Shown here: positions 6,060 to 35,380 of the stretch, in pieces
Layout of the letters: every line of letters starts with the position of its first letter
How positions within the stretch are numbered: the stretch's first letter is position 1
NCBI RefSeq assembly: GCF_006345805.1
Contig: NW_021834831.1
Coordinates: 1-45,531, forward strand
Length of the DNA: 45,531 nt
From: Octopus sinensis
Taxonomy: Eukaryota
Reading direction: 5' to 3'
Position numbers and translations under genes: made by a program
The notes under the pieces: generated by a model
What the model was told of the DNA's origin: nothing
Databases searched by the model: none
Seen by the model: the letters and a program-made list of their open reading frames with translations, nothing else

Positions 6060-6107
6060 CTGTGGGATGCATGCATTTCGGAGTGGTAAGCTCCTCTTCA
6101 GGCACAG
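6060..6107 (-). ncRNA. Type I hammerhead ribozyme motif
   Basis: Minus strand: CUGUG-C CUGAAGA GGAG cuuacca CUCC GAAA UGCAUGCA UC^ C-CACAG. Core intact, 4-bp stem II, palindromic stem III, 5-bp stem I with a C.C mismatch next to the core. Confidence 0.8.
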
Positions 6108-6479
6108 AGACCGAAAAGGTAGACGCTGCAAAGTGACACGAGAAACAGGCCCCTCTTATGATATTCCAATCATCGTTCAATTATCGGTTGCAACTCCAAA
6201 GTTAATGAAAGAAATCATCTCTTTTCAATCCTAGAAACAGATGTAACGCCTTACCGTCTTATTATAATGAGGAAGAGAACGATGGGCAGTAAATACATGA
6301 ATCACACGGTCTGCAACGCTGGGTTAAAATCACTAAGTCAAAATAGAAAATATGAAATGGGAAGCAAAAGAAATAAAATGAGACCATCTATGGTGTATTA
6401 GGGCTAAATTTGACAATATTCATCAGAGGAAAAGAAAACACAATGCCCCATCAACAAAAAGTAATATTTTTAAAAAATC

Positions 6480-7240
6480 AAAAATTATCACTAGCTTATG
6501 GTTAGGAGATTGCAGTTTACTCGAAGAAACCACTCTTAGCTTCCACCACAGCCTCAAGAGAGCACCAAAACCTGGCGTATGCTTTCCTCAGTGTGCCCCT
6601 GGAAAGATCTTTGAACAACTCCTTGACCTTAGCCACAGTGTTTGTGTTGCAGGCAGAGCGGTTGGTGTATTTCTCAGTAAGAGGTTCGGATTAGAATCTA
6701 GGAAATTAGGCGGTCAGAAATTGAAGCTCGTGAAATTGTAGAAATTCTCCGACAACCACTTCTGACTCTGTCCGGAGATATGGCAAGGAGCCGAATCATG
6801 CCGCCACACATATGACCTTTCAGTAGCAACCCACTCTAGCCAGTGATTAACCACAATCTCCAGTAGCTTTACATAGCCGTCTGAATTGAGCTTAAAGCCC
6901 TGTTCAAAGATGTGGGGAGAGATTCCCAAAGATCATCACAGTTTGGGGAAACTCAAGTTTTCACGATGTCCATGTCACATCTTACAGCCTTTACGGTGTT
7001 CACAGAGCACTGAGAAGCAGTTATGATGTTAACATTTTGATACCTGGCGCGAACCATCATTACACATAACTTTTTACCAATATTCAACTGGTTTTCAGTC
7101 TTCCATGCCAGCTAAGTTTTTCTCAACTACAGTTTTAATCTTCATGTTCTCCCACGCTGTTGACTATTCGGCAATACATCAAACTGTTCCTGAAAATAAT
7201 GAGACATAAATATCATCAAATTTATCCCGAACACCTTCTA
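6480..7240 (-). mobile_element. Degenerate Tc1/mariner (maT/DD37D-like) DNA transposon
   Basis: ORF 6714-6929 contains YVKLLE..V..W...YVWRHDSAPCH..QKWL, followed by *PPNFLDSNP (WPPNSPDLNP relic) and LEAVVEAKSGFFE; stops and deletions present. Confidence 0.75.
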
Positions 7241-7279
7241 CCCCTGGGAAGGTATGTATTTGATAGTGCTTCAAATAGA

Positions 7280-7600
7280 AAGATCAACTGATAGACGATT
7301 TTAATAAATCGGCAGAAACATTTAGGAAAATATTAAGCGGTGGTTTGCGAAGAAATGGACTTCGATTTTGTAGATCAAGCTTGATTGTTGGTAACAACCA
7401 AATTTCAAGAACATAAATTGTTGATTTAACAAACAGGACGATGTAGATCCTTTTTTAGTCACCTCGACATCCGAAATGCTCACGGGCTTTTTCGAGACTG
7501 ACTTTTATTACTTCGATTGAGAATTTAATGACGCAGAAGGAAATCAGGGTCGTAAATAGCCTAATAAAACCTATCGGCTGCAAATTGATTGCCCTTATGG
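7280..7600 (-). pseudogene. Possible highly decayed Penelope-like RT fragment
   Basis: Frame-shifted relics TLISFCV, FLKFGCYQQ, PLNIF and RLSVDLF occur in the order expected for a PLE RT (SFDV, F..YQQ, ANIF, RYVDDIF); weak. Confidence 0.3.
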
Positions 7601-7670
7601 GTTCCGTTTTCATTTGATCGTACCTATATGCATTAATAAATTTTTATGATGTCGATAATATATTATATCG

Positions 7671-31928: not shown

Positions 31929-32148
31929 TACATACATACATAAATACATACATAAATACATACATACATACATACATACATACATACATGCATGCATGCA
32001 TACATACATACATACATACATACATACATACATACATACATACATACATGCATGCATGCATGCATACATACATACATACATACATACATACATACATACA
32101 TACATACATAAATACATACATACATACATACATACATACATACATACA
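31929..32148. repeat. (TACA)n microsatellite
   Basis: Directly visible. Confidence 0.97.
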
Positions 32149-32236
32149 TGGGCAAACTGCAAAATGGGAAGGCTCCTGGAAAGGATCTAATTGTTGTATA
32201 TTGGTACAAGAAGTTGACATTTTATAGAAACCATAT

Positions 32237-32690
32237 AGGCGTAGGAGTGGGTGTGTGGTAAGTAGCTTCCTTACCAACCACATGGTTCCGGGTTCAGTCC
32301 CACTGCATGGCACCTTGGGCAAGTGTCTTCTACTATAGCCTCGGGCCGGCCAAAGCCTTGTGAGTGGATTTGGTAGACGGAAACTGAAAGAAGCCCGTTG
32401 TATATATGTATATATATATATATTATATATATATAATATATATATATATATATATATATATATATATAGGTGTGTGTATATGTTTGTGTGTTTGTGTTTG
32501 TCCCCCCAACATCGCTTGACAACCGATGCTGGTGTGTTTATGCCCCCGTAACTTCGCGGTTCGGCAAAACAGACCAATAGAATAAGTACTAGGCTGACAA
32601 AGAATAAGTCCTGGGGTCGTCGACTAAAGGCGGTGCTCCAGCATGGCCACAGTCAAATGACTGAAACAAGTAAAAGAGTAAAAGAGTAAA
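32237..32690 (+). mobile_element. SINE family B, full length, young
   Basis: GGCGTAGGAGTGG...CAAGTAAAAGAGTAAAAGAGTAAA. Confidence 0.93.
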
Positions 32691-35105
32691 CCAATTGATA
32701 TGCATGTTCAAAAGGACTATGGAAGAACAAACTGATATACCACATTGGCTTGCTACAGCAAGGACAAGTCTCGTTGCCAAAAATGAAATCATCGAGATGG
32801 CAGGAAGCTACAGGCCCGTTACTTGCCTAAGCATTATGTACAAGCCGTACACAAGTAGCCTCAACCAATTCCTTCACGAGGAATCGAACAACATTGTGAC
32901 TTATGAACAGGCTGGTGGAAAGAAGGGAGTGTGGGGATGTGCCGAACAACTTTTAATAAAAGAAAACTGTACTGTCTGAAGTTAGAAAACAACGCAGAAA
33001 CCTTGTGACAGTATGGCTTGTCTATATGAAGGCATTCGACTCTATTTGTCATTCATGGCTGTTGGAGTGCCAACATCTGGCAAAGGGACCTCCTTCTTTA
33101 ATTGCTGCAAAAGAGAGACTCACAAAGACATGGACAACTATTCTTACCCTTACTACTGAGAAAAGAATAATTGTTTCTGATAGTATAAGCATTACAAAGG
33201 GAATATTCCATTATCGTTCCTACTGCAGAAAACAAATGGTTACATGCTAGGATCTTCAACTGCCAGAAATATCAATGTAACTCATAATTTCTTTGTAGAC
33301 GACCTGAAGATTTATGCTAAAAGTGTTAAGAATGCCAAAAAAACAACTGGAATTATTAACATTTTCAACTAATATAGGCATGGAATTTGGCCAAAAGGAA
33401 TGTTCATATTTGGTTATAGAACGAGGAAAATTAGTCCCTCGAACTCAATACCTATGCATCAACGGTCTTTCTATCTCCCCCATTCCTCACAAAAAATGTT
33501 ACAAGTACCTAGGCATAGACGAAAATGTATCATATGAAGGCACTGTGAATAAAAATAGAATGACCCGATAATATTACACCAGACTCAGGAAAATATGGCA
33601 GTTGGAACTCTCCTCTTACAACAAAACAATATTCCACAATGCATTTACAGTACCAGGGCTCAAACCAACATTTGGGATACTTGATTGATCTGTAGAGGAA
33701 ATCCACTCGATAGATATAAAACCCCACAAAATCCTGACAATAACTGAGAACATCCACAGAAACAGTGATGTTGACAGGCTCTACCTAAGAAGAAATGAAG
33801 GTGGTAGAGGCCTGATAATCAGTGCAGACGGCATTCGAACGCCGTATGGTATCACTCAGGCAGCACCTGCTAAACAACAACAGCAAAAATAAATATTAAT
33901 GCAGTGCTGAAAAGCGAAGTGAGCAACATTGTACGCGTTGGCAGTGAACGCCTCAAGCAACATTCTCTTCCTAATGATCTCCTATACAGCCCCCAAACAG
34001 CTGGGCTCTCTTACCTCAGAGAAGACCTGGATGGAAAGCACTCAGCGTACAAAAAAAAAATGTTTATGCATGGTTATGCTGCCCGGAAGCTTGAAGGTGA
34101 CAGTAGAATTGACACGAAGCGCAGCCTCTCTTGGACACAAGACCACTACATCACATCACATTTTGAAGGCTATGCGTTTGCAATCCAAGAACAAGAGATT
34201 GCCACAAAGTACCTGGAGAGCAAGCGAGAAAGTGACGCTCTTGTAATCCCAAGTGGCAACCACATGTGTAGGCTATATCTTGTTTTCGTGGAAGACATTA
34301 CGCTTGTGATTAGCAGCTGTCCTAAAATGTCTTCACGGTACCATCTCTCAATGTGGTACGATGTAGTTGCTAAAACAATTTACAATGCCATCTGCAATAA
34401 AGACTGTCCTGAAATTAACTTAGAAAATCCCTCTGCTATGGAATACATTCATGACCAACCAACTCAAGGAATTCTGGTGGAATATTTGCGTCAAAACTTC
34501 TGTCAAATGTAAGCGTAACAAGCCGGATATTGTTGTTTGGGACTAGGGGCAATGGTATATACCACACATACATACATACATACATACATACATACATACA
34601 TACATACATACATACATACATACATACATACCGGATGTTAACATAAAGCTGAAGATCAGTGAAAAAGAGAATATTTACGCTGAACTATTGAAAAATATGC
34701 AGTTACTCTATCCAGATTACAAGTTCAGGTTCATACCTGTAATTATTGGGGTCCTGGGATACGTAACACACTGCTTAAATACCAATCTTGAGAAATTAAG
34801 TTTCTCAAAACCAGAAAGGAGAAAGCTAATTCGAAGACTACAGATCCAATCCATCACTAGAACTGTAAAAATTTGTAAAACTTCCCAGAAGTTTATCATT
34901 TAAATGTATATGAGCATGTCTTGATATGCAACTATATGCATGAGAATACATGCATAAGTAAAACATAGAAATTTGCAGATATACATACATACATACAAGT
35001 AATAATGCCCTGTTGTTGATGTTAAAATTCTAATGAAGGAGCCTTGGATCTAGGTTAGAAACTGGCTCTTTCTCTATTCGCAAGAAATCTTGAAATAAAA
35101 CTGGA
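32691..35105 (+). mobile_element. 5'-truncated non-LTR retrotransposon with RT and restriction-like endonuclease (R4/Dong-like), pseudogenised
   Basis: YRPVTCLSIMYK, EQAGGKKG..GC.EQLLI, KAFDSICHSWL, FVDDLKIY, YKYLGI, GGRGL, AIQEQEIATKY, CRL..EDI...ISSC, KPDIVVW and PVIIGVLG motifs in order; frameshifts; (TACA)n inserted at about 34565-34630; stop at 34901-34903, then 3' UTR. Confidence 0.9.
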
Positions 35106-35303
35106 CAATGACATACATGCATACATACATGTGTGTGTGTGTGCGCGTGTTTGTGTGTGAGCGCTCCCGCGCGCGTAACGCACTGTTCCGTGTTGGTAAG
35201 ATCAACAACAAAGTCCTCCATCTGGTGAGAGATAAATATGATTTAACAGACATGTTTTTATGCGCTACTATTCTCTCATTCTATTTTTTTTTAGTTCTTT
35301 TTG

Positions 35304-35380
35304 ATATGTCATTTGTGCCTGATGAATATGTTAAGCTATTTCTCAACATATGAAGCTATAAGTAGCACATAAAAACATAT
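35304..35380 (+). ncRNA. Extended type I hammerhead ribozyme motif (A15.1G variant)
   Basis: AUAUGU cauu UGUGC CUGAUGA AUAUGUU aagcuauuucuc AACAUAU GAAG CU aua AG UA^ GCACA uaaaa ACAUAU: 7-bp stem II and bipartite stem I with an internal loop; GAAG replaces GAAA. Confidence 0.8.

Follow-up and report, generated by a model that had tools for sequence, protein, structure and literature searches.

We analysed a window of 45,531 nt from Octopus sinensis (positions 1–45,531 of contig NW_021834831.1, assembly GCF_006345805.1). Four complete hammerhead ribozyme folds and a number of remnants in this window are probably the truncated 3′ ends of different families of Penelope-like elements (PLEs), most likely inserted in TA/CA repeats. 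Three of the folds (HH1, HH2, and HH3) are of type I, with the CUGANGA block (C), the GAAA block (G), and the cleavage block (S) in C-G-S order. The fourth, at 1337–1420, has the S-G-C order and is likely the Naiad-type form of the ribozyme.

Type I hammerhead folds and the HH2 family

An initial annotation, made from the letters alone, had proposed type I folds at 6060–6107 (minus strand, HH1), 22909–22998 (plus strand, HH2), and 35304–35380 (plus strand, HH3), and structural descriptors recover all three. The CUGANGA, GAAA, and UH core is complete in HH1 and HH2, and HH3 deviates at position 15.1. HH1, read from 6107 to 6060, is a canonical fold with an intact core, a 5-bp stem I behind a C·C mismatch, a 4-bp stem II with G10.1–C11.1, the cleavage triplet AUC, and a predicted cut after position 6066. 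Its 10-nt palindromic stem III is predicted to form a self-duplex of −13.4 kcal/mol, which would make it competent to dimerise. HH2 has a 6-bp stem I, the cleavage triplet GUA, and a long, irregular stem II (a region of 58 nt) with a U·U at its base. HH3 has a core fold at 35314–35369, with an extended stem I that reaches 35304–35380. Its stems I, II, and III comprise 5, 7, and 3 bp, and residue 15.1 is G instead of A, a substitution that likely weakens the ribozyme.

We searched the window with strict, relaxed, and loosest type I descriptors and compared the results with 200 shuffles under each of two shuffling schemes. The strict descriptor finds HH1 only, and the relaxed descriptor finds HH1, HH2, and HH3. 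Neither matches any shuffle under either scheme (0/200), and the loosest matches 6/200 and 5/200. The relaxed descriptor was set to admit HH1–3, so its shuffle null is favourable to them. With no match in any of the 200 shuffles, the three type I folds are real. The word CUGANGA itself occurs 35 times in the window, against shuffle means of 17–20; its occurrences at 25493 and 24525 have no fold. None of the three folds is the minimum-energy fold of its site or stabler than shuffles (z = 1.28, 0.04, and −0.22 for HH1, HH2, and HH3). Outside the core they have no sequence in common (best local scores 17–19), as stated in the initial annotation, consistent with its proposal of several unrelated hammerhead-bearing retroelement families.

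The HH2 family is multi-copy. We aligned contigs from four sequencing runs (four organism labels, three studies) to 22660–23040 at 80% likeness. The family is present in all four runs, with 6324, 6663, 4510, and 2797 contigs. In two runs, its summed depth is 1.3–1.6 million, where single contigs have depths of 35–60. This corresponds to roughly ten thousand copies, a depth ratio rather than a true copy number.

The depth rises from about 10³ at 22800 to 10⁶ at 22960, a roughly thousandfold gradient toward the 3′ end, and its fall toward 22800 is as 5′ truncation predicts. Some contigs reach beyond the 5′ end of the window copy by 377 nt or more. In the window, the main copy (22794–23030, plus strand) is 5′-truncated and ends at (TA)n. 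It is preceded by an inverted arm (22665–22793, minus strand), a reverse copy of the last 28 nt of the element (27/28 nt identical) together with a tail of about 100 nt, joined to (TA)n. Arm and main copy interrupt the TA tract of a host repeat that is uninterrupted in three of its four copies in the window. The family contigs show the TA junctions directly at both termini: loose ends before 22677 are TA repeat, and beyond 23030–23031 the contigs enter TA repeat (37, 49, 27, and 18 records). Alternatively, they run on as the reverse complement of 22665–22766 (39, 46, and 31 records in the three of four runs listed). The family ends at either of two 3′ positions, separated by about 100 nt, and its tail is optional. 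Joints between arm and body, 15 plus 50 more, fall at varying points of the main copy, and nearly all are represented by one contig per run. Several identical joints recur in three or four organism labels, which suggests that some insertions are common to several of them.

The HH2 family shows the insertion anatomy of PLEs: 5′ truncation, an inverted arm, an optional tail, and TA junctions. PLE insertions with an inverted piece, a tail, and (TA)n have been described (Craig 2021, PMC8557442), as has an inverted, tailed, and truncated anatomy (Arkhipova 2013), and the tail has been linked to the initiation of reverse transcription at two internal sites (Frangieh 2024). The Penelope-like source named in the initial annotation is borne out by this anatomy and by TA targeting across thousands of contigs, and by the layout of HH3 in one copy. 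HH3 likely has an inverted arm at 35170–35271 (minus strand, outer limit approximate), a copy of the cleavage site, the 3′ strand of stem I, and a tail. It is identical at 17 of 18 nt, a likeness equalled by 6/1000 random stretches, self-overlaps included. HH3 and its inverted copy sit between GT tracts, and the 3-bp stem III is Hydra-like. Judged from the sequence of this single copy, the insertion layout is the same as that of HH2. Read in element sense, the arm also carries an acceptor-like tract and, after it, a frame of about 17 codons that opens with methionine and may be the beginning of the parent open reading frame (ORF).

Position 22989 is C in 96, 91, 92, and 93% of the depth in the four runs, which gives the HH2 family an 8-nt palindromic stem III; a private change at 22989 breaks the palindrome in the window copy. 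Among ten variant rows within 22909–22998, none lies in the core, four keep or restore a pair, and four are unpaired. In five loose-end consensi that cross the core, the sole in-core variation is at the free residue N7. In loose-end consensi, the letter at 22923 could pair with the variant at 22979, and that at 22926 with the variant at 22976, suggesting compensatory change in the stems.

The three folds resemble the type I hammerheads of PLEs (Cervera & de la Peña 2014, PMC4209133) and of their Hydra clade (Craig 2021, PMC8557442) in block order, in the short or palindromic stem III, in the extra or mismatched nucleotides at the base of stem II, in the dispersed truncated copies, and in the inverted arm, tail, and (TA)n targets. 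In particular, the base of stem II of HH2 has the U·U plus UGC/GCA pattern that is the commonest among hammerheads of the Hydra clade, which targets (TA)n (Craig 2021, Files S1–S2). An axolotl retrozyme motif with U·U at the same place cleaves (Cervera & de la Peña 2020, PMC7229834). HH2 differs from the Hydra type in its 58-nt stem II region and its tail of about 100 nt, and its likeness to the clade is one of hammerhead style, without an ORF. The initial annotation had left open whether such families are catalogued. The kind is: an octopus Hydra element with a hammerhead, Hydra-1_Obim, is already in print (Craig 2021). HH1–3 differ from Hydra-1_Obim, and the available supplement of that study lacks three short motifs taken from them. 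The type I set thus comprises unlisted families of an already known class. In O. vulgaris, 31 recently active PLE families have been catalogued, with no mention of ribozymes in the available main text.

A permuted hammerhead fold at 1337–1420 and candidate folds in Naiad elements

Naiad elements are reported to lack canonical hammerheads and to carry only 'core' or 'half core' words (Craig 2021, PMC8557442). In Naiad_Esco and in the octopus Naiad ends, however, the cleavage, GAAA, and CUGANGA blocks can be drawn in S-G-C order with stems I and III. A descriptor written from these Naiad ends finds two sites in the window, at 36792 and at 1409.

The site at 1409 belongs to an intact, non-circularly permuted fold at 1337–1420 (plus strand), which lies in some 450 bp of sequence flanked by TA tracts. 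The fold is more unusual than the type I set and was missed in the initial annotation. It consists of an upstream stem II strand (1337–1341), a cleavage block (1360–1370) with the triplet GUC and a predicted cut after 1365, a GAAA block (1375–1387), and a CUGAAGA block (1404–1420). A joining helix (1345–1349/1396–1400) links stems I and II. The core is intact, and stem III, stem I, stem II with its upstream strand, and the joining helix are each paired at 5/5 positions. In a scan of the window for all six block orders, it is the sole match. The fold is predicted to be a self-cleaving ribozyme of S-G-C order.

Three permuted types, SGC, CSG, and GCS, have been defined, and SGC and CSG RNAs were shown to cleave (Eckert 2023, PMC10085705). 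That study reports 583 SGC motifs in environmental data (metatranscriptomes) and two CSG motifs from metagenomes; its search of RefSeq gave no SGC or CSG in known organisms and one GCS only. The fold at 1337–1420 shares with published SGC RNAs the block order, all core letters, a fourth helix, and a short linker from stem I to stem II (4 nt here, typically 3). A second stem II partner after the core offers four pairs, two of them G·U, so published type SGC also fits. Unlike SGC, the fold has a better stem II partner upstream, with five Watson–Crick pairs. In addition, no published SGC or CSG in the material available comes from a eukaryote genome or a retroelement.

A sister copy at 5240–5494 (minus strand) is 73% identical to the 1337 element over 179 nt. 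Its cores are kept, its cleavage block is broken, and an extra G precedes GAAA. By eye, its stem I and stem III strands differ in sequence from those of the 1337 copy yet mostly pair. This decayed copy is the only homolog of the fold from which covariation can be judged. A stable hairpin at 5335–5420 (minus strand, z = −3.58) pairs the strand before CUGAUGA with the sequence after it, and may represent an alternative fold or off-state of the permuted ribozyme in the sister copy. A type II reading of the sites at 1409 and 5392 was set aside once the S-G-C order fitted 1337–1420, and a type I reading with a lost GAAA at the hairpin of the sister copy was dropped after the same fit. At the weakest thresholds only, a loose CSG match appears at 17135.

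The other site found by the descriptor lies in a Naiad remnant at 36746–36801 (plus strand), a decayed, 5′-truncated 3′ end with S-G-C block order directly after (TA)n. Its core reads CCGATCA, stem I pairs at 5/6 positions, and stem III at 3/5. Compared by eye without gaps, 36748–36801 matches the Naiad_Ovul 3′ end at 44 of 54 nt, and the Naiad_Obim end matches too. On this likeness the decayed core noted earlier at 36757 is a real remnant of a Naiad 3′ end. The 1337 family has the same four-helix layout as Naiad ends; by analogy, it is tied to Naiad by architecture only.

Permuted folds can be drawn by eye in at least 18 of 54 Naiad consensi (Craig 2021, File S5), with two more partial, a lower bound that covers part of the 3′ ends and misses motifs split by line ends. 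Eight nematode Naiads are of type CSG, complete in all three stems and with one helix more (adjacent headers name three Nippostrongylus and one Heligmosomoides, and file position places the other four nematode records). Ten have S-G-C order with the upstream stem II strand and come from cnidarians, an ostracod, and cephalopods. Three near-identical corals, two octopus, and one squid (with a weak stem II) are assigned by header, and one hydrozoan, two box jellyfish, and one ostracod by file position. In the Naiads of corals, jellyfish, ostracod, and octopus, stem II pairs better with the upstream strand or has no other partner, an arrangement that splits a block assumed to be indivisible in Eckert 2023. 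By eye, G10.1–C11.1 and the core letters are fixed while the stems differ across phyla and yet pair, the squid record excepted. The available passages on bivalve Naiads contain no permuted fold.

A further interpretation, which we hold as somewhat more likely than not, is that Naiads carry hammerheads as non-circular permutations. Nematode elements would have type CSG, and those of cnidarians, ostracods, and cephalopods an S-G-C form with its stem II strand moved upstream, a four-block order not described before. In this interpretation, 1337–1420 would be an intact genomic example, and such permuted RNAs would be the first in animal genomes. The available portions of Craig 2021 give no permuted reading of Naiad ends, and we found no link of permuted hammerheads to Naiads or retroelements in the literature searched, which included few subscription papers.

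Proposed mechanism and competing explanations

An endonuclease would nick a microsatellite, and at the nick the reverse transcriptase of the element would copy the element RNA. Reverse transcription would start at one of two internal sites, yielding ends with or without the tail. Copying would usually stop early and leave the hammerhead end only, often with an inverted second piece. The anatomy is that observed for the HH2 family, and the enzymology is modelled on Frangieh 2024 and Craig 2021. Cleavage by the hammerhead would fall immediately upstream of the tail, in transcripts that are multimeric or read-through. For HH1 and the HH2 family, the active form would be a dimer joined via the palindromic stem III, a mode of action described for such stems (Cervera & de la Peña 2014, PMC4209133, and a review). 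The S-G-C fold would act as a monomer, in which stems I and II would be held in place by the extra helix. The majority of copies in the genome are likely passengers undergoing decay, this HH2, HH3, and the remnants among them.

Several observations weigh against the assignment to PLEs. No fold in the window is tied to an ORF, and Pfam searches of 290 of the 305 reading-frame pieces gave no remnant of a PLE reverse transcriptase or GIY-YIG domain. The HH-bearing copies are too short to contain an ORF for both. The Rfam hammerhead models, the scan proposed in the initial annotation, give no match at HH1, HH2, or HH3 (E up to 10), nor at 1337–1420. Sampling by contigs covers the HH2 family alone. 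HH1 has no inverted arm that we could find, and the HH2 tail of about 100 nt exceeds the usual 30–40 bp in print. Two of the ten variant rows in HH2 break a pair, the core invariance of the family is not significant alone (p = 0.23), and the letters that suggest compensatory change are unphased.

The permuted folds have their own difficulties. Helices at 1337–1420 are short (5 bp, −2.3 to −5.2 kcal/mol), and the sister copy is broken. Two short motifs of the 1337 family are absent from the available Craig 2021 consensi, and the pairing of the Naiad ends was judged by eye, neither aligned nor scored. The RefSeq null of Eckert 2023 also weighs somewhat against abundant intact genomic copies.

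It is possible, though unlikely, that the hammerheads are real in origin and unneeded by their elements, either hitch-hikers or folds that only bind protein. In an anole element, insertion in vitro withstood mutation of the hammerhead, and RNA-seq showed no ends at the cleavage site (Frangieh 2024). PLE hammerheads cleave poorly (Cervera & de la Peña 2014), and variants in the HH2 family include tens that are neutral to pairing and some that break a pair. However, PLE clades retain the catalytic letters in three different block orders, a pattern not easily explained unless catalysis is under selection.

We consider it improbable that the type I folds are non-autonomous retrozymes or SINE-like (short interspersed element-like) elements that spread via circular RNAs, with no coding parent. 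There is no coding remnant near any fold, the canonical helix sizes of HH1 resemble those of retrozyme hammerheads, and retrozymes are proposed to derive from PLE ends, including solo copies (Li 2026 preprint). Like HH1 and the HH2 family, non-LTR (non-long terminal repeat) retrozymes have type I hammerheads with palindromic stem III (Cervera & de la Peña 2020, PMC7229834; Li 2026 preprint). They differ in being tandem 150–450 bp units, each with a hammerhead, and no tandem of hammerhead units exists for HH1–3. The truncation, inversion, and tail of HH2, and the contigs that reach further upstream, also oppose this explanation. The retrozyme source considered in the initial annotation is therefore not upheld.

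A comparably small chance remains that the fold at 1337–1420 arose by accident in a decayed repeat and that the permuted folds of Naiads are alternative hairpins. For any block order, 8/1500 shuffles match at the observed strength and 115/1500 at a looser one; the nested minimum-energy fold of the 1337 site differs from the permuted fold, and there is one intact copy only. When the upstream stem II strand is required, by contrast, the counts are 0/1000 with all stems of at least 5 pairs and 2/1000 with looser stems. The fourth helix is placed as in Naiad ends and published SGC RNAs, and the descriptor itself came from Naiad records. The fixed core letters and G10.1–C11.1 amid stems that differ across phyla argue in the same direction.

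An acceptor-like AG lies right before the 1337 fold (1315–1336) and before the HH2 core (22903–22914); in HH1 (6125–6140, minus strand) and HH3 (35280–35294), the distance from such an AG to the core is exactly 24 nt. In Drosophila Penelope, an intron ends at stem I (Cervera & de la Peña 2014). Because acceptor-like sites precede the folds and the Penelope intron ends at this place, splicing may, by analogy, switch the HH1–3 and 1337 folds. The same AG sites would fit one or more permuted folds being host-domesticated regulatory ribozymes, a very remote prospect given the repeat context, the TA flanks, the decayed sister copy, the PLEs' own intron at that place, and the lack of any host gene found in the window. 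We retain the truncated PLE ends as the best explanation of the folds.

Decayed cores, repeat setting, and implications

Among the decayed cores listed in the initial annotation, 36757 stands, the site at 30363 is plausible at chance level, and the rest fall away. The 30363 site (30362–30395, plus strand) is a possible truncated minimal hammerhead end between two microsatellites, with a 4-bp stem II, GAAA, and UA; eight such half motifs are seen in the window against a shuffle mean of 7.6. The sites at 9202, 9391, and 9583 lie in a 192-bp tandem (9082–9649, plus strand) of three units, each with a tRNA-like head and 97 nt with core words. They lack stem I, no block order tested fits, and we reject them as hammerheads. 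The 95–97-nt head is 99–100% identical to 7930–8026, and the 97-nt piece is TA-flanked. ARAGORN finds no tRNA in the 192-bp unit. The units resemble a promoter-plus-ribozyme tandem, yet without stem I. The site at 21418 is also rejected, being without G8 and GAAA and located inside the left arm (21363–21435, plus strand) of an inward-facing inverted pair whose partner is 22267–22196. This arm, which holds the core-like word, is likely a foldback or the terminus of a miniature inverted-repeat transposable element (MITE). The nested inverted structure at 21363–22267 has outer arms of about 73 nt, a 193-nt palindrome (21465–21657), and a likely MITE inside.

The proposed association of the folds with microsatellites holds in part. 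As a window statistic it fails for HH1–3: 41%, 10.5%, and 11% of background positions are as near a microsatellite as HH1, HH2, and HH3, which is not significant in a repeat-dense window. The sites at 30363 and 36757 are closer (4.3% and 3.4%), and for HH2 the TA junctions are direct.

The window has a GC content of 37.7% and is packed with microsatellites (97 tandem rows) and dispersed repeats. In the reading-frame pieces covered by Pfam, there are mariner remnants and a decayed reverse-transcriptase element, and no recognisable host gene. Tc1/mariner transposase remnants (Transposase_1, DDE_3, HTH_48) lie at 8155–8948 and 20300–20731, both on the minus strand. The broken non-LTR retroelement at 32674–34903 (plus strand) has a weak reverse transcriptase match and is interrupted by an (ACAT)n tract. 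Its C-terminal region resembles a restriction-like endonuclease, which we take to be of R4/Dong type. A homolog search with the frame at 33874–34509 gave no match. The same frame pieces contain no remnant of a Naiad-type ORF, with N-terminal GIY-YIG, CxC, and reverse transcriptase, and the remnant at 36746–36801 is a 3′ end only. Tandem or duplicated units of 184, 174, 143 bp and similar occur at 23676–24280, 24716–25091, 14774–14947/15388–15561, 25642–26025, and 35927–36197; the 184-bp unit is a dispersed SINE-like repeat with three copies in tandem. Rfam matches over the whole window are microsatellite-driven only, among the 150 of 255 rows listed. Motif scans for HH1, HH2, and the 1337 family gave no match in metagenome, viral, and prokaryote collections.

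Craig 2021 took the lack of hammerheads in Naiads as a sign that PLEs can do without the ribozyme, which may be no more than their parasite. If Naiads keep a rewired catalytic core, self-cleavage would be conserved across most PLE clades, and that argument would weaken. Naiad ends would supply many covarying CSG and SGC examples in named animals, where Eckert 2023 had two CSG and no SGC host, and would test whether the CUGANGA block is separable from stem II. If the interpretation is true, Naiads would offer a lineage along which to follow how a ribozyme was rewired.

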